Positions 9,593 through 60,231 of a stretch of 64,000 nt of DNA are shown here, one piece after another. The stretch is from Candidatus Spongiisociaceae bacterium. Its GTDB lineage: Bacteria > Actinomycetota > Acidimicrobiia > Spongiisociales > Spongiisociaceae. A program made the translations under genes and the position numbers. Within the stretch, counting starts at the first letter, position 1, and each line of letters begins with the position of its first letter. The notes beneath the pieces are model-generated. The model ran no database searches, was not told the DNA's origin, and saw only the letters and a program-made list of their open reading frames with translations. The DNA is taken from positions 3,328,001 to 3,392,000 of the forward strand of contig CBDCOH010000002.1 of NCBI GenBank assembly GCA_965219685.1, written 5' to 3'.

Positions 9593-9843
9593 CGACGGAC
9601 TAGACGGATGCCCTCGATGCCCGTGTCAAGACTCCCGCGGCTCACGAGCTCCAAAACTGCGATAGAAACCTGCGCATGGCTGAAGTGAGGATCATTGAGG
9701 CGTCGCTTCACCTCTCGCACGTTCGTGATCGTCTCTCCATCCTCGAAGAGCCTCAACACCCGTTGTCTGCGCTCCCGGCGCGCGGCCATCACCTGCATAA
9801 TTCGTTGCCTGCGGCTATCGCTTCTCGTCGGAGTCCGCTCCAT
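9589..9843 (-). CDS. Small basic hypothetical protein, possibly winged-helix, translationally coupled to dgt
   Basis: 84-aa ORF with a purine-rich RBS; its TGA overlaps the dgt ATG (ATGA). Confidence 0.6.
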   Translation of the reverse strand: MERTPTRSDSRRQRIMQVMAARRERRQRVLRLFEDGETITNVREVKRRLNDPHFSHAQVSIAVLELVSRGSLDTGIEGIRLVRR

Positions 9844-9936
9844 CCCTCTCCCCTTCCCCCTGCTTGAACTTACGTCAGTGTAAGTAATAGCACGTGGGTA
9901 TGACAGCCCTGGTCGGGATCGTCGGGATCTGGTTTC

Positions 9937-10464
9937 CTAGCTTCGTTCGATGACTCCGCAGGCAACTCGGTCGCCGGCCCCGGGTTCCGCGCCGTAGCTG
10001 TCGGGTTTGGCGTGGATGATGATCGCGGAGCCGTCGGCGTCGAAGAGGGATCCATCGGCACCGGCCGCGAGGGAGATCCGGTCGGCGAAGTAGTCGGTGC
10101 GTGCGATACCGTCGTCGCCGGCGTGGATGTTAGGTAGGTCCCCTGGATGCCAGCTCTCCGCGTGCATGAAGCCGTGGCCCTCGTCGTCGGGATCGAAATG
10201 GCCTCCGGCCGCCGAGAAGTCCGGCGTGCAGGCGCCAACACCATGGATGTGGAATCCGTGCGGTCCGGGGGTCAGCCCGCTGATCTCGGCGGAGATCAGA
10301 ACACCGTTGGGTCCTTGCGTCAGGACGACCTTGCCCATCGGGTCGCCATCGGGCCCCGACATCGACGCTACGGCCGTTTGGCCCACCGCGCTCGTTTCCT
10401 CCCCGCACGCCGCCAGGCCGACTACTACCACCAACCCCAACACAACTACAGCAATACGTCGCAT
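9937..10464 (-). CDS. sodC: Cu/Zn superoxide dismutase lipoprotein
   Basis: Lipobox LAAC; HGFHIH, GGHFDP, HPGDLPNI, IIIHAKPD, GAGDRVACGVI. Confidence 0.95.
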   Translation of the reverse strand: MRRIAVVVLGLVVVVGLAACGEETSAVGQTAVASMSGPDGDPMGKVVLTQGPNGVLISAEISGLTPGPHGFHIHGVGACTPDFSAAGGHFDPDDEGHGFMHAESWHPGDLPNIHAGDDGIARTDYFADRISLAAGADGSLFDADGSAIIIHAKPDSYGAEPGAGDRVACGVIERS

Positions 10465-46304: not shown

Positions 46305-48083
46305 CTATGCCTCGATCCAGGCCGTTTCCCAGCGTTGCTGCTGTTCGGGGAACATTGGGAAGCCCTTGACCTTGTTGGACATGGCGACCGCGTACGGCGC
46401 CGCCACGATAGCGATGAAGGTCGCACCCTCGTTGAGGTACTTGTTCCAAGCCATCGAGTAGAGCCTCCCGCGCTCGTCGACATCGGCAACGGCGCTTGCC
46501 TCCGAGATCCATGCCGAGATCTCGGGGTCGGTGTAGCCGGTGACGTCGCCTTCCCCGATGAACCGTGAACGCGGCCCGGGATCCATGAAGCTGATGGAGG
46601 CGCTGTTGGCCATCTGCCAGTCCTGCTGTGACCAGCGGTTGGCCCAGAACCCCTCCTCCAGTGCCGCGACCGTGGCGTTGATCCCGACCGCCTGCAGGTC
46701 GGCGGCCACCGACTCGGCGACCTTCTTGATGTGCGCCACGTCGTGTGCCGTCAACTCGAGATCGAATCCGAGTACTCCCTCAGCTTCCAGGATCGCCCGC
46801 GCCCCCTCCGGGTCGTAGGGCGGCGGGGTGATGTTGAGCGGGACATTGGACAGCGGCGGCACGTTGGTGTAGGCCGGCGCACCCAAGCCGAAGAGAGCCC
46901 GCTCGTTGGCAGCGTCCCGGTTGATCGACATGGCAATGGCCCGCCGCACGTTCGGGTTGTCGAGTGGCGGATACCTCGGGCTGATCCGGAACCAGTCCAC
47001 CCATGTGGAGGGCAGTACCTGGACGTTGATCGAATCGTCGGCCTGCAGGGCGGGGATCTCCACTCGCGGAGGGTTCCTGATCCAGTCGACTTCGCCGGCC
47101 CGGAGAGCCGCCAGACGGCTGGTCTCGTCCGGGATGGGGATCATGCGGATCTCATCGAGGATCGGCAGGTCCTCCTCCCAGTAGTTGGGGTTCTTCTCCA
47201 TGATCGTCACCACATCCGGGATGTGCTCCTTGAAGCGGAAGGGTCCCGTACCCACCGGGTAGCTGTTGATGTCGGCGATGGCCTCCTGCGGCATGATCGC
47301 GTTGACATGCACGAAGAACAGTTCCTCGAGGCGGGGATGGGGCTGATGGAGCGTGATGTGGATCGTGTGCGAGTCGGTGGCCTCGATGCTCTTGAAGAGG
47401 CTCTCATCGGTCTCCGCATTCACGAACGAGGCCCGGTACGCCGAACCTGTCTCCGGATTCAGCACGCGCATCGTGCTGTAGATGACGTCGTCGGCGGTCA
47501 TCTCCCGTCCGTTGTGGAAGTAGACCCCGCGCCGGACGTTGAAGGTCCACTCCATGAAGTCGTCGCTGAACTCCCAGCTCATCGCCTGCTCCGGAACGTG
47601 CCGGTAGGTAACCGGATCGAGATCCGACAGGCCGCGGAAGATCTGCGAGGGTGCCCACGCGTCCGTGAGGTTGAACTGCTTGTGGTAGTCGAAGTTCTGT
47701 ATCGACCCATCGATCCCCAGCCTGATGTTCTGCGGCGGCAGCTCGGGTTCGGGTGGCGGAGGGGGCGCCGTCGTACCGGGAGCAACCGTCACGGTGGTGG
47801 TCGAAGCCTCGGTGAGGGCCGTCGTGGTGTCGGCTGCCATCGCCTCGGTGGTCGTGGGCGCCGCCGTGGTCGGTGCCGCCGTCGTGGGTGCGGCAGTGGT
47901 GGGGGCTGCCGTTGCAGGGGCCGCGGTATCGGGAGCCGGAGCGTCCTCCCCGCACGCCGCCGCCAGTGAACCAGCCGCTACCAGCGAACCTCCGTAGCCC
48001 ATCCACTTCAGGAATGTCCGTCGATCTACAGGGGATCCGCGCCCGGGATCCTCGGGTCGCGTCTCTTCACTTCTACTAGCCAT
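46305..48083 (-). CDS. Peptide ABC substrate-binding lipoprotein with Tat signal
   Basis: DRRTFLK, LAAAC, PTTAA linker, FHNG..MTADDV, PVGTGPF, VRRAI. Confidence 0.92.
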   Translation of the reverse strand: MASRSEETRPEDPGRGSPVDRRTFLKWMGYGGSLVAAGSLAAACGEDAPAPDTAAPATAAPTTAAPTTAAPTTAAPTTTEAMAADTTTALTEASTTTVTVAPGTTAPPPPPEPELPPQNIRLGIDGSIQNFDYHKQFNLTDAWAPSQIFRGLSDLDPVTYRHVPEQAMSWEFSDDFMEWTFNVRRGVYFHNGREMTADDVIYSTMRVLNPETGSAYRASFVNAETDESLFKSIEATDSHTIHITLHQPHPRLEELFFVHVNAIMPQEAIADINSYPVGTGPFRFKEHIPDVVTIMEKNPNYWEEDLPILDEIRMIPIPDETSRLAALRAGEVDWIRNPPRVEIPALQADDSINVQVLPSTWVDWFRISPRYPPLDNPNVRRAIAMSINRDAANERALFGLGAPAYTNVPPLSNVPLNITPPPYDPEGARAILEAEGVLGFDLELTAHDVAHIKKVAESVAADLQAVGINATVAALEEGFWANRWSQQDWQMANSASISFMDPGPRSRFIGEGDVTGYTDPEISAWISEASAVADVDERGRLYSMAWNKYLNEGATFIAIVAAPYAVAMSNKVKGFPMFPEQQQRWETAWIEA

Positions 48084-48345
48084 GGATTCTCCTCCCGGGT
48101 TTCCCCAATCCACCCACCGCGGCTGATCCTCGGCGTGCCCGGGCCACGGCGCAGGCGACTGGAGTGCGCTCGACGTGGATCTCCTAGATACCTCCCTTGC
48201 AACGACCGGGCACTACTCGCTTCTGACTCTAGGAGCCAGCAAAAAGGACCGTCAACCAAAACTCCGGCTTTTCGCTTATCCACGCGGCACCGAACCGAAT
48301 CATCCACCTCGGTATCGTGAGACCAAGTCGGAAGGTGAGCGACAA

Positions 48346-49479
48346 GTGAGCAGATACAGCAACGACCCCTACCGGACACTTCTCGGTCTGCGACCGTTCA
48401 TAAACGCGTCGGGAAACTCCACCACGCTCGGGGGCAGTGTCATGCCCGGCAAGGTGGTCGACGCAATGGCCGCCGCGGCCCGATCCTTCATCGATCTGAA
48501 CGCCCTGCACGAGAAGGCGGGAGAGAAGTTGGCCGAGATGATCGGTGTAGAAGCCGCCTTCATTTCGTGCGGCGCTTCCAGCGGCGTGGCGATGTGCGCC
48601 GCCGCCTGCATGACCGGAGGAGACCCGGAAAGGGTTGCAAGCCTGCCGCATACGGAGGCGTTTGCAGACGAGTTCGTGATCAGCCTCATAGACCCCCACG
48701 TTTTCGTTCACCAGGGCATCGAATCGGTCGGCGGCAAGCTGGTCAGGGTAGGTAGCCGTACCGACGTGACCATCGCCGATATGGTGGCCGCCATTGGTCC
48801 GCGCACCGCGGCCGTGGTGCTGTTCTACGGTCTGCAGTCCCGCCAGGACCTGGCCGAGTTGGCTTCGGCTGCTTCGGCGCTCGGCGTTCCGGTCATCGTC
48901 GACGCCGCCGCCCAGCTCCCGCCCCGTTCCAACCTGACCTCGCTCCTCGATCTGGGAGCTTCCCTGGTCGCCTTCAGCGGCGGCAAGGCGATCAGAGGGC
49001 CGCAGAGCACCGGCCTGGTCCTCGGGCGAGCCGACCTGGTGGAGGCGGTCAGGCTCAACGCCAACCCCTTCACGGCCATCGGCCGCGGCATGAAGGTGGG
49101 CAAGGAGGAGATCGTGGGCCTGCTGGCCGCGGTCGAACTCTTCCTGGCCGCGGATGAAGAGGAGGAACTGGCGGGCTGGCGCCGGGACCTGGAGGGCATC
49201 GCCGCCAGGCTCAACGAACTCGACGGCGTACGCGCCGAGGTCGGATCCAAGGGGCACGCAGCGGCACCCGCCGCAGTCGCTCGTGGGTACGTCACGTTGG
49301 ATCCCGACCGAACACCGCCGGCCGCATCGATCATCGAGGACCTGCTGGCCGGGGAGCCTTCGATAGCGCTACGGGCCGATGCAGACGCCATCGTGATCGA
49401 TCCGATGACCATGCTGCCGGGCGACGCCGAGGTGGTGGCCCGGCGGATGGCGGAAGTTATTGTTGGCGTTAGGCGTTAG
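48346..49479 (+). CDS. SelA-like PLP-dependent enzyme (DgaE-type)
   Basis: INASG..T.LGGS, VDAAA, FSGGKAIRGPQSTG, IGRGMKVGKEEI. Confidence 0.88.
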   Translation: MSRYSNDPYRTLLGLRPFINASGNSTTLGGSVMPGKVVDAMAAAARSFIDLNALHEKAGEKLAEMIGVEAAFISCGASSGVAMCAAACMTGGDPERVASLPHTEAFADEFVISLIDPHVFVHQGIESVGGKLVRVGSRTDVTIADMVAAIGPRTAAVVLFYGLQSRQDLAELASAASALGVPVIVDAAAQLPPRSNLTSLLDLGASLVAFSGGKAIRGPQSTGLVLGRADLVEAVRLNANPFTAIGRGMKVGKEEIVGLLAAVELFLAADEEEELAGWRRDLEGIAARLNELDGVRAEVGSKGHAAAPAAVARGYVTLDPDRTPPAASIIEDLLAGEPSIALRADADAIVIDPMTMLPGDAEVVARRMAEVIVGVRR

Positions 49480-49517
49480 GCGTTAGGCGTTAGGCGTTAG
49501 GCGTTAGGCGTTAGGCG
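49465..49517. repeat. Perfect heptamer array (GGCGTTA)x7 supplying the stop codon of the SelA-like gene
   Basis: Seven perfect units plus a partial; last codons GVRR* lie inside the array. Confidence 0.95.
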
Positions 49518-49590
49518 GCGGTTGGGCTCTCTCTTCCCTCTCGGCCCGAATCGGTAGCGTTGCGGTTTCCCCGCGTTTTCTTGGCAAATC

Positions 49591-49639
49591 AGTTTGCATT
49601 GCAAACTCTCGGCCTCTAAGGTGGTTTGCAGCACAAACT
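49591..49639. promoter_or_regulatory. Tandem palindromic operator sites upstream of a membrane protein / wHTH regulator pair
   Basis: AGTTTGCA-T-TGCAAACT (49591-49607, perfect) and GGTTTGCA-G-CACAAACT (49623-49639). Confidence 0.75.
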
Positions 49640-49682
49640 ATGCGGTGGGCCAGGCCCGCCTGACTTGAGACGGAGGTGCATT

Positions 49683-50315
49683 ATGGGAGGACAGGACGGC
49701 GGGACTGCCGCCCTCACGCCTGAAGAGAGTTGGGGCACGATCCACGAAACACTGGACCGGACGCGTAGCTCGATCTACGTCGCCGGAGCGTCGACAATCC
49801 TGATCCTCTGGGGGGTCATAGTCGCTCTCGGATACTTCTGGCAGTACGCCTACCAGACATTGGCCGGCGATCTCTTCGCGGGCCGCCCCTGGATTCCCTT
49901 GCCGATCTGGATAGCACTCGGAATCGGGGGAATGGTGGGAAGCGGCATCATCAGCCACCGCGCCACGCGCAGGCTTGCCCCCGGGGTCGACCTGCGGCAA
50001 GCGGGAATCCGGGTGGGTCTCTTCTGGCTGGCGGTCGTGACCGCGTCGTTCCTCCTTCCGGGCGCGGCCGGTTTGTGGAACGCGGAGTTGGCCGCCCGGA
50101 TACCCTATGTCGTGGTCGGCGTGATAGGACTCGGATACGTCCTGTTCGGCATCATGTTCCGTCCGGCCTTGGCGATGGTGGGTCTGGGTATCGCCGCCTC
50201 CTTCTACCTTCCCAACTACCTGGCCGGCGATGTCGCGCCGGCCTTGTCGGGAGCAGCGACATTGGTGGTGGCAGGACTTGGCTGGGCGTGGATCCGAAGG
50301 ACAGACGTGGCGTGA
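49683..50315 (+). CDS. Multi-TM membrane protein of unknown function
   Basis: About six hydrophobic segments, GGAGG RBS, overlaps the regulator start. Confidence 0.75.
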   Translation: MGGQDGGTAALTPEESWGTIHETLDRTRSSIYVAGASTILILWGVIVALGYFWQYAYQTLAGDLFAGRPWIPLPIWIALGIGGMVGSGIISHRATRRLAPGVDLRQAGIRVGLFWLAVVTASFLLPGAAGLWNAELAARIPYVVVGVIGLGYVLFGIMFRPALAMVGLGIAASFYLPNYLAGDVAPALSGAATLVVAGLGWAWIRRTDVA

Positions 50316-50638
50316 CCGCAGAACCCATCGTCTTGAACGAGACCATCCACCAATCCACACGGCTGCGGATAATGTCCATGCTGGTCTCCCAGCCTGAGAC
50401 CGACCGGCTCACCTACGGGTTCATCCAGAAGACGCTGCATCTCACGGGTGGGAACCTGACAACCCATCTGCGGAAACTCGAGAGCGCAGGCTACCTGGTC
50501 ACCGCCAAGGAGTTCCTCGACTCCAAGCCTCGCACATGGGTCAGGGCGACACCGGAGGGCCGCCGAGCGTTCGCCGAGCATCTTGCCAACCTGGACAAGG
50601 CCCTCAACCTCCGGCGGGCACTGGCGGGTGACCGGTAA
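50312..50638 (+). CDS. Winged-helix transcriptional regulator (HTH_34/ArsR-like)
   Basis: IHQSTRLRIM, LTGGNLTTHLRKLESAGY, K.F...PRTW...T.EGR.AF. Confidence 0.9.
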   Translation: MTAEPIVLNETIHQSTRLRIMSMLVSQPETDRLTYGFIQKTLHLTGGNLTTHLRKLESAGYLVTAKEFLDSKPRTWVRATPEGRRAFAEHLANLDKALNLRRALAGDR

Positions 50639-50813
50639 CGGCTTCCAAGACAAAGACGTTGTAGCCGCCGGTGTCCAGCAACGCCGAACCCTGCAACTAT
50701 CATAAGAAATGTGTATGGATGCTACAAAATAGATAAATATATCTGAATCCACCTGCGCCGTTCGTCTCCCATCAATATGATTTCGCGAGGAGCGCTACGA
50801 GGGAGGGTATCGA

Positions 50814-51416
50814 ATGAGCGCCATCCAAGACGGTCTACGACTCAAGACAGCTTTCACGACAGCAGCCTGGGTCCTGATCCCGGTCGCCATCGGGATCAAC
50901 CTCATCGGAAGGTACTTCGCCCAGACCTTGAACCTGCCGCTGTTCATCGACACGACCGGCACCACGATGGCGGCCTTCCTGGCCGGCCCCTGGGTTGCCG
51001 CAGTCGCCGGGGTGCTCACGAACCTCGTGATCGGGCTCACGCTCGAAGCGACGTCGATTCCATTCGGTATCGTCAACGCGGCTATCGGCATTGTGGCCGG
51101 TGTCATGGCAGCGCATGGATTCCTTCGCTCCACGGGCAAGGTGATCTGGCTGATACTGGCCTTGACCGCTACCACCATCATCACCGCCACGCCCATCGTG
51201 GTGCTCGTTTTCGAAGGCGTCTCCGGGTCAGGCGTCGACGTGGTCACCGGCTTCTTCGTGGCATCCGGGCAAGGAATCGTCGAATCGGTTATCGGTCAGC
51301 AACTGCTCACGACTCCGGGCGACAAGGTGCTCACGGTGCTCCTGTCCTTCATCTTGATAAAGGGAGTTCCGGCACGCTACCGGCCCCCGTTCGGCCGAGA
51401 AGTCGTTCCGTTCTAG
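50814..51416 (+). CDS. ECF transporter S component
   Basis: LIPVAIGIN, LPLFIDTTGT, GPW, TPI...F.G..G.G, DK. Confidence 0.85.
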   Translation: MSAIQDGLRLKTAFTTAAWVLIPVAIGINLIGRYFAQTLNLPLFIDTTGTTMAAFLAGPWVAAVAGVLTNLVIGLTLEATSIPFGIVNAAIGIVAGVMAAHGFLRSTGKVIWLILALTATTIITATPIVVLVFEGVSGSGVDVVTGFFVASGQGIVESVIGQQLLTTPGDKVLTVLLSFILIKGVPARYRPPFGREVVPF

Positions 51417-51705
51417 GAAGGTACTGAGGAACCGCCGGCTGGCCCGACGGTCGATGGCAACCCACATGTCAGCGGACGGCGGGCCACCGGCATTCCTTGT
51501 TTCTCAGCACCCTTCTGACCGGCTAGTGGTCACCCTGTGAAGCAGCGGCACGGAGTGCACGGCGACGGCTCTCCGGGACAGACCCGCCTGTGAAGGCGTG
51601 CGGGGAACGGAACGTCGAGGCAGCGGAACGCAGCGCTGGGCTTCGCCGGTCGGCAGCACGGGCCGGTCCGCCTGGCGGGCAGACCACCCGAACCACGACG
51701 CGGTA

Positions 51706-52497
51706 GTGGAAGCCGACACGACCGCTTGGTCCCCGGCGCGATTAGCCGCGCTGTACGAGGTCGGGAGCACCTGGCTCCACCGGGTGCATCCCCTGACCAA
51801 GCTGGCCGCAGTGCTTCCACTATCGGTTGCGGGATTCGCCGGCGACACGGTTCGGGTTCCCGCAGTCCTCTTGCTGGCGGCGGCAGTGATCCTCATCGTG
51901 ACCCGTCTGGGTTCGGTCGTGCTGAAATCACTCCGGCTCATCGCACCGATGACATTCGCCCTCTTCGTGATACACGGGGTGGTCCGCCCTTACGATTCGG
52001 AACCTATCGCCAGCTGGGGCCCCATCTCGATCAACGCCGAAGGACTGGCCCTCGCCGGAACCACCGCCGCGCGCCTGGCGGTGTTCGTCGTCGCGGTGAC
52101 CGCCGCGATGGCGACCGTACACCCCAAGGTCTTCGCCACGGCCCTGATCCAGCGAGGTGTCTCGCACAAGCTTGCCTACGCGTATCTAGCCGGGGCAGAA
52201 TTGCTCCCGGAGATGCGGCTCCGGGCTTCCCAGATCCTCGATGCCCAGCAGTCGCGCGGCTTCGACACGAAGGGCAGTTTGCCGCGACGTCTCCGGACCC
52301 TCTTCGCACTGCTAAAGCCCCTGCTGGTCAGTTCCCTGATCGGGGTTGAGATGAGGACCCTGGCCCTCGAATCAAGGGGGTTCGCCCGACCCGGGCGCCG
52401 GACCTCCGCCGTGGAGGTGGAAGATCGGGGGAGGTGGCTCCAGAGGGCGCTCCTGCTGGCTGCGATCCCGCTGGTCGTCCTGGCCATCCTATGGTGA
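51706..52497 (+). CDS. ECF transporter T component (start uncertain)
   Basis: SWLHRVHPLTK-like N-motif, AQQSRG and ALESRGF X-R-X motifs. Confidence 0.85.
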   Translation: MEADTTAWSPARLAALYEVGSTWLHRVHPLTKLAAVLPLSVAGFAGDTVRVPAVLLLAAAVILIVTRLGSVVLKSLRLIAPMTFALFVIHGVVRPYDSEPIASWGPISINAEGLALAGTTAARLAVFVVAVTAAMATVHPKVFATALIQRGVSHKLAYAYLAGAELLPEMRLRASQILDAQQSRGFDTKGSLPRRLRTLFALLKPLLVSSLIGVEMRTLALESRGFARPGRRTSAVEVEDRGRWLQRALLLAAIPLVVLAILW

Positions 52498-53399
52498 GCG
52501 GCGCTCGCTCCCCGGACTCCAACGGGTCGGGGACCGCGGCATTTGCGAGGTTCGAGGGGTTCGGCGTCACTTACGCCACCGCTTCCGAGCCCTCGCTGAC
52601 CGGGGTGACCCTCGAGCTCTACAGCGACCGGCTCGCCCTCGTCACCGGGCCCTCCGGGAGCGGAAAGTCCACGCTGGCGCGGATCGTGGCCGGGTTCGTT
52701 CCGAGGCTGCTGCACGGGCAGGTGGAGGGCTCGGCACACGTGCTCGGTCACGACGTGGAATCCGCCGCGCCGCACGCGATCATCGAGTCCATAGGCATGG
52801 TGTTCGACAACCCCTTCGACCAGCTGACCGCCGCCACCAGGACGGTGTTCGACGAGACCGCCTACGCCTTGGAGAACGAGGGACTACCCCCTGCCGAGAT
52901 CGTCATCAGGGTTATGGGGGCCTTGGAGAACGTCGGGCTGGCCGAGATGGCCGGCCACCACCCCCGCCGCCTCTCGGGCGGCCAATCGCAGCGGCTGGCG
53001 ATAGCGTGCGCTCTGGCCCAGCAGAAGCCGATCCTGGTCCTCGACGACCCGACCTCCCAGCTCGATCCCACCGGAACCGCGGAGGTCGTGTCCATGGTCA
53101 AGAAGTTGCGGAGGGAGCACACGACGGTGGTACTGGTAGCCCAGGACCTGAGCCACTGGCTGGCCATCGCCGACCGGCTGATCATCCTGGACGAGGGTCG
53201 TGTGACGGCGGACGGGAACCCTGCTTCCCTCCTCGCCGACCCGGGGCCGCTTGCCGGAAAGGTCCTGATCCCTCGCTACGTCGCTATCTGGACCGAGTTG
53301 AGCAGCCGCGGGATGGAACTGGGTGATCGCGCGCCCCTCGGGACGGAACAGTTGCTGGAGTCACTCCGAGCCTCGGGCGGCGCCGGAGGATCGGAGTGA
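52491..53399 (+). CDS. ECF ATPase (EcfA) with degenerate Walker B and H-switch
   Basis: GPSGSGKST, LSGGQ, LDDPTSQLDP, VAQD. Confidence 0.88.
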   Translation: MVSGARSPDSNGSGTAAFARFEGFGVTYATASEPSLTGVTLELYSDRLALVTGPSGSGKSTLARIVAGFVPRLLHGQVEGSAHVLGHDVESAAPHAIIESIGMVFDNPFDQLTAATRTVFDETAYALENEGLPPAEIVIRVMGALENVGLAEMAGHHPRRLSGGQSQRLAIACALAQQKPILVLDDPTSQLDPTGTAEVVSMVKKLRREHTTVVLVAQDLSHWLAIADRLIILDEGRVTADGNPASLLADPGPLAGKVLIPRYVAIWTELSSRGMELGDRAPLGTEQLLESLRASGGAGGSE

Positions 53400-54202
53400 T
53401 CCGGCTTCGCGATGTCAGCTACACCTACCCGAAGGGTGTCGAGGCGATACGTGGACTGAGCCTCGACGTGTCCGTCGGCGAGATCCTGTTCGTGCTAGGG
53501 CACAACGGCGCCGGAAAGTCGACGATGCTCCGCCTTTTCAACGGTCTACTCAAGCCCACCACCGGTACGGTGACGGTCGACGGCACCGACACGGCGAAGG
53601 TGAGACCCGCCCAACTCGCGCGTAGCGTCGGTCTGGTGTTCCAGAATCCCGACGCCCAGTTGTTCCGTGACCGGGTCTCGGACGAGGTGTCGTTCGGAGC
53701 CGACCATGGCGCCGGAACGGCGGATTCGACGCAACGCTTCGATCAGGCGATGGCTCTTCTCGGACTCGAGTCGGTGGCGGATCGCAACCCCTACGATCTC
53801 TCCCTCTCGTGGCGCAAGCGGGTGGCCATCGCGTCGGTCGTCGCCATGGGCAGCCCGATCTTGGTGCTCGACGAGCCTACGGGCGGCCAGGACGCCGAAG
53901 GAACCCGTGTTCTCACCGACCTCGTCATGGACAGGCGCCGTCACGGTCACGGTTGCGTGGTGGTCACCCACGACGTGGACCTGGCCTTCGACTGTGCCGA
54001 CCGGGTGGTGGTGATGAGAGAAGGCGAGATCCATCTAGAAGGCGACCCGATGACCGTGCTCGGCGATCCGCTCCTGGCGGCGGCCGGTGTCGAACCTTCA
54101 ACGATGCACCGTGTCTCGCAGGGGCTGGGACTGGATCGACCGGTCCGTACAGTGGACGAACTGGAAGAACACCTCAGATCCGCAGGAGGCACAACTCCAT
54201 GA
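53396..54202 (+). CDS. ECF ATPase (EcfA') with degenerate signature motif
   Basis: GHNGAGKST, FQNPD.Q, LSLSW, LDEPT, VTHD. Confidence 0.9.
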   Translation: MIRLRDVSYTYPKGVEAIRGLSLDVSVGEILFVLGHNGAGKSTMLRLFNGLLKPTTGTVTVDGTDTAKVRPAQLARSVGLVFQNPDAQLFRDRVSDEVSFGADHGAGTADSTQRFDQAMALLGLESVADRNPYDLSLSWRKRVAIASVVAMGSPILVLDEPTGGQDAEGTRVLTDLVMDRRRHGHGCVVVTHDVDLAFDCADRVVVMREGEIHLEGDPMTVLGDPLLAAAGVEPSTMHRVSQGLGLDRPVRTVDELEEHLRSAGGTTP

Positions 54203-54990
54203 GCTTCGATCCGCTGAGCACCGACAAGCCGCAGCACCATATCCGATGCCTCCCGGGCGATGTGGCCGACAAGGTCCTCCTACCCGGTGACCCCAAGAGA
54301 GCGGAGCGGATAGCAGAGTTGCTCGACGACGCCCGCCACATCGCCACCAATCGCGAGTACGCCACCTACACGGGGACCTATCGAGGCATGCCGGTGTCCG
54401 TGACGTCGACCGGCATCGGTTGCCCTTCTGCGGCCATCGCCATCGAGGAACTCACCAGCGTGGGCGCCAGAACCCTGATCCGCGTCGGAACCAGCGGTTC
54501 GATGACGCCCGACGTGCAACCCGGTGAGGTGATCGTCGGGACGGGGGCCATACGGGAGGAGGGGACCGGGACGTCGTACCTTCCCATCGAATACCCGGCC
54601 GTGGCCGACCTCGACATGACGATCTGCCTGCGGGCCGCAGCCCTGGAACTCGGGCTGCCGGTGCGGTCGGGCGTTCTCCATTCCAAGGACTCGTTCTACT
54701 CGCACCGGACTCCGGACCGGGTGCCGGTGGCGCAGGAGATGCTGGGGAAGCGGGCCGCGTGGAGAGCGGGTGGGGCCCTCGCATCGGAGATGGAGACCTC
54801 CACGCTGTTTATCCTCGGATCCATGCTGCGGTTGAGGACAGGCTCCATATGTATGGTCGCCAGTTCGCATGATGCGGCTACCCGCCTGCCGCCTGCGGAG
54901 GCGGCGGCGCTGGTCGACAAGGTGATATTCGCCGCGCTCGATGCCCTGGTCATGGTCGAGTCACCGGGCAAGGGAGGCAACTCCGGATGA
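54199..54990 (+). CDS. udp: Uridine/nucleoside phosphorylase (PNP_UDP_1 family)
   Basis: QHHI, LPGDP.R, NREY, STGIGCPS..IA.EEL, IRVGT.G, DSFY, EME. Confidence 0.88.
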   Translation: MSFDPLSTDKPQHHIRCLPGDVADKVLLPGDPKRAERIAELLDDARHIATNREYATYTGTYRGMPVSVTSTGIGCPSAAIAIEELTSVGARTLIRVGTSGSMTPDVQPGEVIVGTGAIREEGTGTSYLPIEYPAVADLDMTICLRAAALELGLPVRSGVLHSKDSFYSHRTPDRVPVAQEMLGKRAAWRAGGALASEMETSTLFILGSMLRLRTGSICMVASSHDAATRLPPAEAAALVDKVIFAALDALVMVESPGKGGNSG

Positions 54991-55991
54991 CCACCCGGAT
55001 CGACGTCCACACCCACTTCTACCCCACTTCCTACCTGGCCGCCCTGGAACGACGGAGCGACATCCCGCGCGTCTACCGGGACGGCGCTGTCAGACGGTTC
55101 GTGATCTTCCCGGAGGAGGATGCCGACCCGCGCATAGGTCGCCCCATCGAGGACGGGTGGTGCACCGTCGCGGGGAAGGTCGGCTTCATGGACGAAAAGG
55201 CCATCTCACGCTCCGTCATCTCGCTCGGCAACCCCTGGATGGAGCCGTTCGAGGGTCAGCAGGGGATCGAACTGACACGAGTGGTCAACGACGAGTTAGG
55301 CGCCCTGGAGGAGACGACGGATGGGCGGATGGTGGGTCTCGGAGCCCTCCCCGCAACCAGTGTCGAGGATGTCGTGGCGGAGATCGCGGCCATCGACCGG
55401 CACCCGAGCCTGCGCGGAATCGTGACGGGCCCCCGGATCGCGCAACTCCGGCTGGACGATCCGGAGTTGGAACCGGTCTGGGCGGAACTGGAGTCGCGGG
55501 ACGTCCCCGTGTTGTTGCACCCCCAGGACGGTATCGCCCTCGACCTCCTGGAAGGCTACGGACACGTCCTGCCCGTCGGGGTGGGTTTCCCGATGGAGAC
55601 CACCGCAGTGGTGAGCCGCCTCGTGTTCGGCGGCGTTCTCCACAACCACCCCGATCTCAAGATGATCGTCTCGCACGGTGGGGGGACGCTGTCGGCCCTG
55701 GTAGGGCGGCTCGACGCTGCCTGGCGATCGGACGAGATCGGCCGGTCCCGCCTTCCCGAACCCCCATCCAGGTCGATCGCCCGGCTCTACGTCGACGCCA
55801 TCACCTACGCACCGGGTCCGCTGCACGCATCCATCGCCATGGTCGGTAGCGAACGGGTCATGTTCGGCACCGATCACCCCTTCTCCATCGAGGATGCCGA
55901 AGCAACTGCGGACGCCATGGGTGCGGTCGACGAGATCGCCCGCGAGTCGATCTTCGCAGGCACCGCCTCCGCCCTCTTCCGATTGACCTGA
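54987..55991 (+). CDS. Amidohydrolase_2 decarboxylase, uracil-5-carboxylate (iso-orotate) decarboxylase-like
   Basis: DVHTHFYP.SY, GRP, SVISLGNPW, LHP, YGHVLP..GFPMETT, HGGGTL, FGTDHPF. Confidence 0.8.
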   Translation: MTTRIDVHTHFYPTSYLAALERRSDIPRVYRDGAVRRFVIFPEEDADPRIGRPIEDGWCTVAGKVGFMDEKAISRSVISLGNPWMEPFEGQQGIELTRVVNDELGALEETTDGRMVGLGALPATSVEDVVAEIAAIDRHPSLRGIVTGPRIAQLRLDDPELEPVWAELESRDVPVLLHPQDGIALDLLEGYGHVLPVGVGFPMETTAVVSRLVFGGVLHNHPDLKMIVSHGGGTLSALVGRLDAAWRSDEIGRSRLPEPPSRSIARLYVDAITYAPGPLHASIAMVGSERVMFGTDHPFSIEDAEATADAMGAVDEIARESIFAGTASALFRLT

Positions 55992-56065
55992 CGATCGAGA
56001 AGCTGCCTGACCAATCGGCCAATCGAGCGGCAGCCCCGACAGGGTTGCGTAGCTAGTTGGTCAAG

Positions 56066-56080
56066 TCTGATCTAGTCAGA
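56066..56080. promoter_or_regulatory. Putative toxin-antitoxin autoregulatory operator
   Basis: TCTGA-TCTAG-TCAGA inverted repeat ending 13 bp upstream of the antitoxin ATG. Confidence 0.45.
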
Positions 56081-56093
56081 TAAACTGGCCTGT

Positions 56094-56327
56094 ATGATCG
56101 TCAACGTTTACGAGGCCAAGACCCATTTCTCCAAGCTCCTCGACCGTGTTCTGAACGGTGAGGAGATCGTGATAGGTCGGGCGGGGAGGCCCGTCGCCCG
56201 ACTAGTTCCCTTCGTCGCGAAGCGAACTCCAAGGGTGCCGGGCAGGCTGGCCGGCAAGATCGTCATGGCTGAGGACTTCGACGCGACACCCGGCTGGCTG
56301 CTCGACGCTTTCGAGGGCCGGGAGTGA
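56094..56327 (+). CDS. vapB: Type II TA antitoxin, Phd/YefM family
   Basis: NVYEAKTHFSKLL...GEEIVI.RAGRPVARLVP, DFD. Confidence 0.93.
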   Translation: MIVNVYEAKTHFSKLLDRVLNGEEIVIGRAGRPVARLVPFVAKRTPRVPGRLAGKIVMAEDFDATPGWLLDAFEGRE

Positions 56328-56695
56328 ATCTACTGCTGGACACCCACACCGCGTTGTGGTGGTTCAGCAACGAGGGTCTCTTCACAGGAGGGGCGGATGC
56401 CATCGCGGATCCCAACAACCTCGTTTACGTAAGCGTGGCCAGCATCTGGGAGGTCAGCATCAAGCAGACCATCGGCAAACTCGCCATCAGTGATGAGTTC
56501 TACACGTTTGTCTACGAGGACTTCGAGCCTCTTCATATCACCATCTCAGACGCCCGAGCAGCCGGTGCCCTGCCGCGACACCACCGCGATCCGTTCGACA
56601 GGATGCTTGTCGCGCAGGCTCTTGCGCGCGACCTGACGCTGGTGAGTCGGGATCGGGCGTTGAGCCAGTATGGGGTCAAGTTGATGAGAGCCTGA
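56324..56695 (+). CDS. vapC: Type II TA toxin, PIN domain
   Basis: LLDTH, SIWE..IK, HRDPFDRMLVAQA; GTGA overlap with the antitoxin. Confidence 0.94.
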   Translation: MNLLLDTHTALWWFSNEGLFTGGADAIADPNNLVYVSVASIWEVSIKQTIGKLAISDEFYTFVYEDFEPLHITISDARAAGALPRHHRDPFDRMLVAQALARDLTLVSRDRALSQYGVKLMRA

Positions 56696-56826
56696 ACCGG
56701 GTTCGATACCTCCCAGGATGTGTTGTGGGCGCAGCCCGGAAGGCGTAACTCCCTACAAGGCCCCTTACCGTCGACACGTGGCCCGAAAAACTCCTACAAT
56801 GGCCACCCTCCGGCAACCGGCAACGG

Positions 56827-57798
56827 CTACGCTCGGCGTCCGGTGTAGGGGATGTCGTCGAGGATCCGGAACAGGACCTTCTTGTCGTCGTCGCCCAGAG
56901 CGCTGAAGGGTGGCCGCACGGACCCGCCCTTCAGGCCCACGTAGTCAAGGGTGCCCTTGATGACCGATGCCCCGAAGTAGTACGGGTACTCCTCGCCGGT
57001 CGTGAACTCCTCCCCCATGAAGAAGTGCATATAGGGCGCCAGCCTGGCGTGCATGCGGTCCGCCTCGCCGTAGGCGCCCTTCTCCAGCAGGTCCCAGTAC
57101 TCGAGCTCGAACTCGGGCCACCAACTGGCCGGACCCGAGATGAAGCTGGCGCTGCCGTGGATGTGACCGACCGACGAGGTGAAGCCCAGGGAGTTGTCGA
57201 TGAAATTGAACCGGTCCTTGAACATCGGGATGGTGCTGATCATCGGTACGTATATGCCCGGTCCCCCGTACTTGAGGGACAGGACGTTGGGGATGTCGGT
57301 CACGCGCTGAAGCAACGTGGCGGTGAGGCTGGTGGCGAGGTGCCCGCGCCACGGCTGGTCGTACAGCATGATGGCCATGTCCGGAACGGATTCCGCCACC
57401 ATACGTATGAAGGTGTCGAAACTGTCCTCGTCGAGGCGGTAGTAGAACGGCGGGGTGAGCATCACATGGCCGGCCCCGGCGTCGCGGGCGTTGCGGGTCA
57501 TCTTGATGGCTTCGAACACGCTGCAGGAACCCACCCCGGCCACGATCGGGAGCTTCCCGTCGGCGCCCCTGACGGACGCCTCGACTATCTGGCTGTGCTC
57601 CTCCTCGTTCAGATGTACCAGTTCACCCGTTCCCGACGGGGAGATGACGAAGCCGCGTCCGGTGACAAGGCCGCCTTCGACCATCCAGCGGATGTTGTCC
57701 TCCAGGGCGCCTAGATCCGGGCTGAAGTCATCGTTCCAGGGAATCATTGCCAGCGAGGCAGGCCCGCATATCTCCGCTTTCCGTGCGTCCCAGTCCAT
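56827..57798 (-). CDS. Dihydrodipicolinate synthase family (class I aldolase/lyase) protein
   Basis: GTGE..L...E, GVG, TPPFY, MLY, LKY Schiff-base lysine, VRPP. Confidence 0.85.
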   Translation of the reverse strand: MDWDARKAEICGPASLAMIPWNDDFSPDLGALEDNIRWMVEGGLVTGRGFVISPSGTGELVHLNEEEHSQIVEASVRGADGKLPIVAGVGSCSVFEAIKMTRNARDAGAGHVMLTPPFYYRLDEDSFDTFIRMVAESVPDMAIMLYDQPWRGHLATSLTATLLQRVTDIPNVLSLKYGGPGIYVPMISTIPMFKDRFNFIDNSLGFTSSVGHIHGSASFISGPASWWPEFELEYWDLLEKGAYGEADRMHARLAPYMHFFMGEEFTTGEEYPYYFGASVIKGTLDYVGLKGGSVRPPFSALGDDDKKVLFRILDDIPYTGRRA

Positions 57799-58757: not shown

Positions 58758-59899
58758 TTATCGGACCCGACTGAGGCCGACCGGTGCGGTCGACAGCACC
58801 TCGGGAGCACCATCGGTGATAGCGAGCACCTGCTCTGCGCAGTAGATCCCGGTGTCGTCCACGACGGCCGGTTCGATAGTGACCACCATGCCCGGCTGCA
58901 ATACCGTCTCGTCGAACTCGGCGATGCTGGGGGGTTCGGTCGCGTCGAGGCCGATGCCGTGACCGAGCCGCCCGAACCCGAGCGAGTCAAGCCCGAGAGA
59001 GTCCGACCTGTCCCGCACGGCCGCCGCGACCTCTCCGACCGCCGCACCGGCGCGGGCCACCTCGATCCCGGCGTTCGTGGCCTCAACCACGGCCTCCTGG
59101 AGTTCCGTCTGCCGGGAGTCGGGGCCTCCGACCACCGCTGCCCGGCAGAAGTCGGACCAGTACCCGTCCACCCGCACACCAACGTCGGACCAGACGAGGT
59201 CCCCCTCCCGGATGACACGGTCGCGCGGAGCGCTGACGAACCGGTCGTACGACCCGGACCCTGACGTTATGGCGATCCAACCCAGGGTGTCAGCCCCCGC
59301 ACCGATGGCAGCCCTCGCTATCCGTCGCGCCAGTTCACGCTCGGTGACTCCGGTGAGGGTCCCTGCCAGTACCTGCGCAAACGCTGCACTCGTGGCCTGG
59401 GCCGCAGCCCGTAGGCAGGCTATCTCGTAGGGGGACTTGACGGTCCGCAGCACCAGAGCAAGTCCTGGCCGTCGACCAACCGGAGGCGGTCGACCTGGCG
59501 GGCGATGGCACCGAAGTCGGCGGGAGTTACTCCCGCCCTCGCCTCCCTACCCAACTCCAAGCCGATGGGGCCGGGCGGAAGGGCACCGATCGCATCGACC
59601 ACATGCGGCACCACGCTCTCGGGCGGTACGTCGTAGCGATGGACCACCGAGTCGGGCCATGCCTCCCCGGCCTCATCGGCGACGAAGGCGGGGAGGCAAA
59701 GGTGGAGGGGGCCGTCCTCCGGAACCACCGCGATCGTCGACCTGGTGGCCGATGACCACATCGGGTCGAACCGTAGACCGGTGAAGTAGACGAAGTTGGC
59801 CTGTGTCGAGACGACCAGCCCAACCAGGCCGGCATCGGCCATCGCAGATCGGGCTCGCACGACGCGGTCGCGGAACTCGTCGGGGGGTGGTTGCGGCAT
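58758..59899 (-). pseudogene. Xaa-Pro peptidase (M24B) family gene with a frameshift near 59453; possibly a sequencing error
   Basis: N-domain in ORF 59420-60055 (MPQPPPDEFRDRV...NFVYFTG). Catalytic domain in 58758-59453 (RTVKSPYEI, DVG, SDFCR, GHGIG, TIEP, AEQ). Confidence 0.85.
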
Positions 59900-60231
59900 C
59901 AGGCGACAGATGGGGGCACGGCGGCGACTCCCCGCTGGCGGCAGGCCACCAAGAGCCTCCGGTTGATGGAATTGCGCAGGCTCCCATCGACAACCGCCAT
60001 GGCGATGTCTCGAAGGAGCGCCCTCTCGTGGGTCATGCGTTCCTTTTGATCCCAAGTCCGTTCATCCGGAGATCGGACGCGCCGGATTATCGCGTGCGAC
60101 GCGTCGAACGTCGACCGGCCCGGGGCCGCCCAACCCCCGAATCGTATACTCCTACACGAGCCGGAGGCCGGGCAAGGCGAGGGCCATGAGCGACGGTTTG
60201 CCGGAAGCAACCGGAAGGGGAGGAGCGGAAG

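Follow-up and report, generated by a model that had tools for sequence, protein, structure and literature searches.

We propose that a six-gene operon in the window analysed here, a stretch of 64,000 nucleotides from a Candidatus Spongiisociaceae bacterium (contig CBDCOH010000002.1), would take up a 5-carboxylated pyrimidine nucleoside, split it by phosphorolysis and decarboxylate the released base to uracil. Judging from the predicted proteins and their relatives, we hold this reading as a whole to be about evenly balanced between right and wrong. The genes lie head to tail on the plus strand at positions 50814-55991. They encode the S, T, A and A' components of an energy-coupling factor (ECF) transporter, a phosphorylase of the uridine phosphorylase (udp) type and an enzyme of the Amidohydro_2 family resembling iso-orotate decarboxylase (IDCase, also known as uracil-5-carboxylate decarboxylase):

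50814-51416, plus strand: ECF S (substrate-capture) component, CD3073-like, 200 aa, matched by NCBIfam ECF_S_CD3073 and Pfam ECF_trnsprt
51598-52497, plus strand: ECF T (scaffold) component, CbiQ-type (Pfam CbiQ, 72.6 bits)
52491-53399, plus strand: ECF ATPase A (ABC_tran, 82.3 bits; TIGR04520 ECF_ATPase_1, 188.6 bits, short of its cut-off of 315)
53396-54202, plus strand: ECF ATPase A' (ABC_tran, 104.8 bits; TIGR04521 ECF_ATPase_2, 199.4 bits, short of its cut-off of 330)
54199-54990, plus strand: uridine-phosphorylase-type nucleoside phosphorylase of the hexameric NP-I family, S. pyogenes type, 263 aa (PNP_UDP_1, 137.9 bits)
54987-55991, plus strand: IDCase-like (uracil-5-carboxylate decarboxylase-like) enzyme, 334 aa (Pfam Amidohydro_2, 98.2 bits)

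The arrangement of these genes is tight. Direct reading of the sequence gives a 7-nt overlap between T and A (ATGGTGA) and overlaps of 4 nt each at the A/A' (GTGA), A'/udp (ATGA) and udp/amidohydrolase (ATGA) junctions, the last two being preceded by GGAGG-like sites. Both the order of the six genes and the overlaps of the last five had been reported in an earlier note on this DNA, and both hold. The S and T genes do not overlap; the gap between them measures ~180-290 nt depending on the start of T, whose open reading frame (ORF) opens at 51598 and whose likely start is a GTG at 51706, alignment with relatives being limited to the last 250-283 residues. The A frame opens at a GTG at 52434, and an ATG at 52491 overlaps the T stop codon by 7 nt; given the ATGGTGA junction, A therefore probably starts at 52491. 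With S, T and two ATPase genes in one operon, the transporter has the composition of a dedicated (group I) ECF system, the S and ATPase scores lying below the equivalog cut-offs. The S-T-A-A' block is also kept together in relatives and in Nonomuraea (see below). Such a layout is best explained if the six genes form one transcription unit.

The assignment of the amidohydrolase to the IDCase type, rather than to aminocarboxymuconate-semialdehyde decarboxylase (ACMSD), is well supported by sequence comparison and by a structural model. Among solved structures, the five best distinct chains were all uracil-5-carboxylate decarboxylases (E 7.5e-50 to 1e-47, 166-173 bits), whereas ACMSD followed at 6.8e-31 (111 bits), LigW at 1.4e-19 and gamma-resorcylate decarboxylase at 1.6e-15; the nearest solved relatives are thus not ACMSD proteins. 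No NCBIfam model matched the protein, and a protein atlas search returned only unannotated Amidohydro_2 clusters. An AlphaFold2 model, built from an alignment of 32 homologues, reached a mean pLDDT of 94.8. When this model was compared with solved structures in Foldseek, IDCase chains came first (TMq 0.92-0.94, root-mean-square deviation 2.2-2.9 Å, 32-33% identity), with ACMSD at TMq 0.85-0.87 and LigW at 0.82. Five motifs had led the earlier note to prefer IDCase over ACMSD; all of them (HTHFYPTSY, GRP, SVISLGNPW, YGHVLPVGVGFPMETT and FGTDHPF) are present in the translation, and the bit scores and structural comparison agree with that preference.

The active site tells the same story. As described for the Cordyceps militaris IDCase (PMC6305744), the metal site is formed by His12, His14, His195 and Asp323, the substrate carboxylate is contacted by His251, Arg262 and Asp323, and the ring is surrounded by Phe222, Phe326 and Phe327. 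In the same description, Arg68 bonds N1 and the C2 carbonyl, Asn98 bonds N3-H and a carbonyl, and these two residues distinguish IDCase from LigW and gamma-resorcylate decarboxylase (PMC6305744). A HMMER alignment to chain 4lak_A, numbered as in that work, showed that 10 of the 11 named residues are kept in the window protein: H8, H10, R52, N82, H178, F201, H230, R241, D296 and F299 correspond, in the same order, to His12, His14, Arg68, Asn98, His195, Phe222, His251, Arg262, Asp323 and Phe326. The binders of the metal, of the carboxylate and of the uracil ring are therefore all represented, and four of the five residues of the carboxylate and stacking set (His251, Arg262, Phe222, Phe326, Phe327) are retained. 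All ten residues are invariant in the alignment of 32 bacterial homologues (44-91% identity).

To place the protein among its relatives, we searched 1.84 billion cluster representatives, which yielded 6700 relatives at E <= 0.001 and only 195 at E <= 1e-30. A tree was then computed from 126 of the best 150 representatives (at least 290 aa), 11 bacterial homologues and the window protein, minus two rows longer than 520 aa; it is a quick FastTree reconstruction of 136 rows with a midpoint root and SH-like support. The tree fell into two parts, a 78-row clade and a 58-row clade, with support of 95 each. In the alignment of 137 rows, the pair of Arg and Asn in the Arg68 and Asn98 columns was confined to the clade of the window protein: it was found in none of the 78 rows of the former, all 41 pair-bearing rows belonging to the latter. 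Within it, the window protein belongs to a 27-row bacterial clade (support 99). This clade joins, with support of 90, a group that includes a 20-row clade (support 99), whose proteins are mostly longer and end in Phe-Phe. The 20-row clade is labelled IDCase-type after two members compared with solved structures: P0165 scored 379 bits against the Metarhizium anisopliae IDCase, and P0162 scored 269 bits against IDCase. Such a topology, under FastTree and midpoint rooting, puts the window protein beside the IDCase-type clade and not inside it.

The sampled representatives are unlabelled. However, ACMSD at ~111 bits falls below the ~128 bits of the 150th representative, which suggests that ACMSD-type proteins lie outside the sampled set. 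The preference of the earlier note for IDCase is thus borne out: by sequence and fold the protein groups with IDCase and apart from ACMSD and the aromatic-acid decarboxylases, and the tree, which has no named rows of ACMSD or LigW, agrees in placing it next to IDCase. It is also important to note that 8 of the 27 rows of the bacterial clade are without the Arg, so substrate specificity probably varies within this clade; the 14-row subclade of the window protein keeps both Arg and Asn. Many bacterial homologues of 43-51% identity bear the JGI name 'aminocarboxymuconate-semialdehyde decarboxylase'. Judged by residue pattern and tree, they are probably misnamed.

The gene immediately upstream, overlapping that of the amidohydrolase, encodes the phosphorylase. 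Its best solved relative is the Streptococcus pyogenes uridine phosphorylase 3qpb (E 7.4e-65, 222 bits, over residues 12-226), followed by the Thermus thermophilus purine nucleoside phosphorylase (166 bits) and gamma-proteobacterial uridine phosphorylases (~150 bits). The genome holds six PNP_UDP_1 members, among which the operon's protein scores highest on the uridine phosphorylase model (241 bits), the second reaching 204 bits. With so many paralogues at hand, the operon's enzyme can be a specialised one.

Evidence on the S component comes chiefly from its company. By sequence search it had no solved relative, and its only NCBIfam match was the model 'CD3073 family putative ECF transporter S component'. 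S is rare in the phylum, being found in 7 of 401 sampled Actinomycetota genomes, the window's own included. We scanned its neighbours in five of the six other S-bearing genomes (all except G393). In G114, whose S shares 48% identity, rbsK-rbsC-rbsB-rbsA-rbsD lie on one side of the ECF module and an inosine-uridine nucleoside hydrolase gene lies on the other. A nucleoside hydrolase gene adjoins the S module in G069 and a PfkB kinase gene does so in G182 and G416; the scan of G326 gave nothing telling. A metagenome scan, with an alignment of five close S sequences as the query, retained 80 loci. After three near relatives were set aside and loci of at least 4 kb were considered (n=48), a nucleoside hydrolase, PfkB kinase or PNP/UDP-family match was found close to S in 14 of 48 loci, and in 12 of the 19 such loci with a recognisable T gene; these counts should be read with the caveat that the hydrolase and kinase queries were drawn from loci chosen by S adjacency and that PfkB is a broad family. 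A further trace of S was found outside the window, where positions 3610369-3610512 of contig C2 in genome G000 (locus L095, 7373-7513, minus strand) encode a fragment of 47-48 residues with 75-77% identity to S residues 22-69, probably the remnant of a second S copy.

The neighbourhoods of the IDCase-like gene point in the same direction. Orthologues (79-91% identity) occur in 7/7 genomes of the window's genus and, within the same family, in 10/12 genomes of a second genus; the rest of the order gave only paralogues of at most 34% identity. Among the close relatives, 12 of the 16 loci have the full S-T-A-A'-udp-amidohydrolase set, and the remaining four comprise one locus cut by a contig end yet consistent, two uninformative contig ends and one depleted locus. 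Since these relatives are kin, the 16 close loci count as one observation. The full set is also found in three near-relative metagenome contigs. The depleted locus, L024 from an Acidimicrobiia metagenome-assembled genome (MAG), has an intact IDCase-like gene and a 59-residue udp remnant (9819-9995), with no ECF genes found upstream; the operon has apparently decayed there.

More distant comparison involved 44 loci with an IDCase-like protein of 38-50% identity, udp being counted within 10 kb. In a Nonomuraea sp., a row of genes encodes S (63%), T, A, A', the udp-type enzyme (56%), a GntR/FCD regulator, the IDCase-like enzyme (45%), a DeoC-family aldolase and an aldehyde dehydrogenase. In an Anaerolineaceae MAG, udp (56%) overlaps the IDCase-like gene by 4 nt, and genes for TrmD, a Major Facilitator Superfamily (MFS) transporter and cytidine deaminase follow. 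In a Terrimesophilobacter MAG, a 19-kb island unites a Bmp-type ABC system, a deaminase-like amidohydrolase, the IDCase-like gene, ROK and PfkB kinases, a nucleoside hydrolase and an S-A-A'-T-udp block. Thus, the conservation of the neighbourhood does not end with the close loci: the complete set recurs in Nonomuraea, and the udp-IDCase pair recurs in Anaerolineaceae. The link to nucleoside handling drawn in the earlier note is likewise backed by independent neighbourhoods, those of the IDCase-like gene and those of the S homologues.

Such evidence induces us to propose the following scenario. The substrate would most likely be 5-carboxyuridine or 5-carboxy-2'-deoxyuridine, possibly derived from cytidine forms via a deaminase encoded elsewhere. 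The dedicated ECF transporter (S, T, A, A') would import the nucleoside; the uridine-phosphorylase-type enzyme would then use phosphate to yield (deoxy)ribose-1-phosphate and 5-carboxyuracil; the IDCase-like, metal-dependent decarboxylase would convert 5-carboxyuracil to uracil and CO2; and uracil would enter the UMP pool through the genome's uracil phosphoribosyltransferase, the gene for which (upp) scores above its curated cut-off. Decarboxylation is put after sugar removal because Arg68 of IDCase bonds N1, the atom that is glycosylated in nucleosides, and it is from this contact in the fungal enzyme alone that the order of import, phosphorolysis and decarboxylation is taken. The same three steps had been put forward in the earlier note. 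The IDCase grouping, the residues and the nucleoside neighbourhoods speak for them, while what molecule is imported, which of the two enzymes acts first and what activity each protein has are points that we infer.

The same genes could also be read as an operon for general uptake and breakdown of pyrimidine nucleosides (uridine, deoxyuridine, thymidine), in which the decarboxylase would be an accessory that clears 5-carboxyuracil or a related base arriving by other routes. The phosphorylase is indeed closest to a uridine phosphorylase solved with ordinary substrates, S homologues sit with general ribose and nucleoside-hydrolase genes, and the DeoC-family aldolase and aldehyde dehydrogenase of Nonomuraea make up a generic deoxynucleoside catabolic set. 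Against this, in two phyla a 4-nt overlap couples translation of the decarboxylase gene to that of udp, which suggests that both enzymes share one substrate stream, and five other PNP_UDP_1 paralogues are there for ordinary nucleosides. Moreover, bulk nutrients are not usually taken up by ECF transporters. We therefore regard a general operon as unlikely, though worth serious consideration.

The Arg68 contact can be turned to another use as well, for it implies that the substrate of the decarboxylase is a free base. One might suppose that 5-carboxyuracil (iso-orotate) itself is taken up and decarboxylated to uracil, from which the phosphorylase makes uridine, nucleoside phosphorylases being reversible. 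Yet upp already provides for the conversion of uracil to UMP, S homologues adjoin nucleoside-cleaving and ribose-using genes, and DeoC in the Nonomuraea cluster fits the release of a sugar. Import of the free base thus seems to us improbable, and we return to the import of a carboxylated nucleoside.

A number of observations weigh against this reading, and we bring them together here. To begin with, all of the evidence is computational. In the decarboxylase, the position of IDCase Phe327 is taken by Ser300, and Ser or Thr mostly stands there in the bacterial relatives. The best model for the phosphorylase, TIGR01718, gives 239.7 bits, below its equivalog cut-off of 280.3. In the window's phosphorylase clade, the Gln of the FYGQ motif is replaced by His, so that FYGQH of the S. 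pyogenes enzyme reads FYSHR; going by the E. coli enzyme, this Gln presumably binds the base. The distant IDCase-linked udp genes keep the Gln. A specificity signature common to all IDCase-linked udp genes was also considered and rejected, the change from Gln to His being confined to the window's family. As for the source of the carboxyl group, the operon contains no carboxyl-forming enzyme, and no thymine-7-hydroxylase-type 2-oxoglutarate-Fe(II) oxygenase (PF03171, PF14226) was found in the genome, which is 96.7% complete. The fungal thymine route is therefore not available, and the carboxyl group would have to be present on the imported molecule or come from unrelated enzymes. A literature search for a natural pool of free 5-carboxyuridine or 5-carboxydeoxyuridine gave none, returning mostly synthetic chemistry and 5-carboxycytidine in RNA. 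Oxidised 5-methylpyrimidines of host RNA or DNA, or algal DNA rich in 5-hydroxymethyluracil, come to mind as sources, which is speculation on our part.

Further points concern the transporter. S scores 106.5 bits on ECF_S_CD3073, below the cut-off of 180, and 20.3 bits (E 5.9e-4) on Pfam ECF_trnsprt (PF12822), below the cut-off of 30.7. The related PF12822 proteins include queuosine importers (PMC11130926), and some of the nucleoside-gene neighbours of S homologues may be queuosine systems. Could S, then, be a QrtT-like importer of queuosine or a precursor, with the operon's enzymes processing that nucleoside? QrtT, the S component of an ECF system for queuosine and its precursors, is a member of the very family that S matches weakly, and it clusters with the nucleoside hydrolase QueK (PMC11130926). 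However, queuine has no ring carboxylate on which an IDCase-type enzyme could act, and the partner in our operon is of the uridine phosphorylase type and not a QueK homologue. No preQ1 or other riboswitch was found by an Rfam scan of positions 48000-57000. Nor did we find clustering with queuosine genes, the operon partners being udp and the IDCase-like gene, with tgt not among the genes searched for. Queuosine salvage is accordingly very improbable here. By analogy, QrtT is nonetheless a direct precedent for the carboxylated-nucleoside reading, as a case of ECF import of a modified nucleoside that is deglycosylated by a neighbouring enzyme.

Finally, udp was found near only 3 of the 44 distant loci, from three different orders or phyla. 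The 41 others keep different company: an 8-oxoguanine-deaminase-like Amidohydro_1 protein (21), an allantoinase/dihydropyrimidinase-like enzyme (12), short-chain dehydrogenase/reductase (SDR) proteins, aldehyde dehydrogenase, a RutB-like isochorismatase-family hydrolase, a PTE-family protein, an NMT1/THI5-type binding protein with ABC parts, CN_hydrolase, and Bmp/PnrA-type binding proteins. The TenA encoded in distant loci scores above the thiaminase II cut-off. Taken together, the distant loci look like nitrogen-heterocycle clusters with a largely pyrimidine flavour, and they fit a ring-decarboxylating family with a uracil-like product. The substrate of the family need not be 5-carboxyuracil everywhere, as these 41 loci without udp lie in other heterocycle clusters; the family may act on other 5-carboxylated heterocycles, and the substrate may differ between subclades.

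The window's enzyme might also be concerned with a different heterocycle. Its substrate would then be another ortho-hydroxy or ortho-oxo carboxylate, for instance a product of the thiamine pyrimidine that bears a carboxyl group, a base of the 5-carboxycytosine type or a hydroxypyridine carboxylate, and the phosphorylase would cleave the riboside that goes with it. Many distant homologues occur with TenA, an NMT1/THI5-type binding protein, SDR, aldehyde dehydrogenase, a lactonase-like PTE protein and a deaminase-like amidohydrolase, and the loss of the Arg in part of the bacterial clade agrees with such a shift. On the other hand, the window's own subclade keeps the uracil-reading Arg and Asn together with the carboxylate and metal residues; its partner is a uridine-phosphorylase-type enzyme; and elsewhere the partners include cytidine deaminase and DeoC. 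We consider a different heterocycle distinctly unlikely in the case of this operon.

One group of the distant loci deserves a comment of its own. In nine of them, mostly from Actinomycetota MAGs (L037, L039, L041, L045, L053, L057, L060, L077 and L078), a conserved cluster surrounds the IDCase-like gene and encodes a MocR-type regulator, a deaminase-like Amidohydro_1 protein, a RutB-like hydrolase, a PTE-family protein, an SDR, an aldehyde dehydrogenase, an NMT1/THI5-type ABC system and, in several loci, TenA. This cluster has the look of a breakdown pathway, not yet described, for a hydroxymethyl-pyrimidine, examples being the thiamine pyrimidine and 5-hydroxymethyl bases.

Overall, the alternatives differ mainly in the molecule that is transported. 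The import, phosphorolysis and decarboxylation of a 5-carboxylated pyrimidine nucleoside is, in our opinion, a reasonable and testable proposition with roughly equal chances of proving true or false.

As to the expression of the operon, one feature upstream of S may be singled out:

50690-50790, plus strand: AT-rich promoter-like region 5' of S, with a -10-like TATGAT at 50776-50781 and a ribosome-binding site, GAGGGAGG, before the ATG

Alignment of 12 relatives showed that ATCAATATGAT(T), ~35 nt 5' of the S start codon, is the best conserved upstream block, and it contains the TATGAT. A scan for the sigma-70 consensus found no site; the promoter role of the AT-rich region is therefore one that we infer. 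The only terminator-like hairpin returned by a terminator scan lies inside S and does not rise above the level of shuffled sequence. In the Rfam scan mentioned above, run at E up to 1, the sole match was a weak one to CcsR1 (19 bits, E 0.49) at 50017-50076, outside the operon, and control by a riboswitch or leader RNA was set aside on this basis. Just 5' of the operon, a 229-aa membrane protein and an HTH_34 winged-helix regulator are encoded at 49626-50638 on the plus strand with a 4-nt overlap. We considered this pair as a regulator of the operon and found no support for it: of the 12 relatives' loci that are complete, only two (L021 and L023) have it 5' of S, and so it is probably an independent module.

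The wider surroundings have a G+C content of 0.60-0.69 across the window, and the flanking genes (a DgaE-like lyase, a peptide-type ABC system, DHDPS-like and Amdase-like proteins) show no evident link to nucleosides. Directly 3' of the operon, at 56094-56695 on the plus strand, two genes that share 4 nt encode a PhdYefM-type antitoxin of 77 aa and a PIN-domain toxin of 123 aa. A creatinase/prolidase-type M24 peptidase at 58758-60055 on the minus strand is split into two overlapping ORFs in different frames, with Creatinase_N in 59420-60055 and Peptidase_M24 in 58758-59453, which suggests a frameshift, a pseudogene or an assembly error. Near-identical homologues come from Candidatus Spongiisocius, Spongiisociaceae and 'Acidimicrobiia bacterium' MAGs, which points to a lineage of Acidimicrobiia that lives with sponges. 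Of the words sampled from the operon, a fraction of 0.20-0.56 is present in public runs labelled as coral, sponge or marine metagenome. A search of the open-access literature found no paper on Spongiisocius.

Among known systems, the closest to our decarboxylase are the fungal IDCases of C. militaris and M. anisopliae (4hk5, 4lam, 4hjw). They share with it the Amidohydro_2 fold, the metal ligands, the carboxylate-binding His and Arg, the uracil-reading Arg and Asn and two of the three stacking Phe residues. The window protein is shorter, at 334 aa as against 376-387 in the solved chains, and the fungal insertion near residue 45 is absent from it. In addition, the bacterial enzyme, the activity of which is a prediction, is coupled to a transporter and a phosphorylase and not to thymine-7-hydroxylase. 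ACMSD, a member of the same superfamily with the same fold, is clearly more distant than IDCase.

At the level of pathways, fungal thymidine salvage by thymine-7-hydroxylase and IDCase would have the same last step, from 5-carboxyuracil to uracil, and there too the nucleoside is cleaved before the base is processed. The outline of this route is general background and also follows the abstract of PMC4787775. Our operon differs from it in lacking an oxidising enzyme and in having an ECF importer as a part of the unit. With QrtT/QueT and QueK (PMC11130926), the common logic would be ECF import of a modified nucleoside, removal of the sugar by an adjacent gene product and reuse of the base. However, their base is a 7-deazapurine, the sugar comes off by hydrolysis instead of phosphorolysis, and no decarboxylase is involved.

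Earlier work has treated IDCase as an enzyme of fungi, and has also taken it as a model for a decarboxylase of 5-carboxycytosine in DNA, itself hypothetical. Our searches of open-access papers and preprints returned no description of a bacterial IDCase route, in agreement with the earlier note, which knew of no such pathway in bacteria. A parallel search for ECF transporters associated with nucleoside hydrolases gave only the work on queuosine in the open-access literature. Against this background, the new aspect of our reading is that it places the chemistry of a fungal enzyme in a bacterial import-and-cleave operon.

It is tempting to suppose that sponge- and coral-associated Acidimicrobiia, along with scattered Actinomycetota and Chloroflexota, recover uracil and sugar phosphate from oxidised 5-methylpyrimidine nucleosides of host or algal nucleic acids. 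They would do so by an undescribed bacterial pathway that combines the first ECF transporter dedicated to pyrimidine nucleosides with a bacterial IDCase orthologue. We put forward this broader picture tentatively, and think it somewhat more apt to fail than to hold. Still, a sister family in bacteria that reads its substrate with the same residues would extend IDCase chemistry beyond fungi, and proteins that now go by 'amidohydrolase family protein' or, probably in error, by ACMSD would gain a function. It would also suggest nucleosides as the substrate class for an ECF S family that NCBI lists only as 'putative'. The scenario also prompts one to ask what supplies sponge and coral holobionts with carboxylated pyrimidine nucleosides. 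If it is true, 5-carboxy pyrimidine nucleosides are real environmental metabolites.

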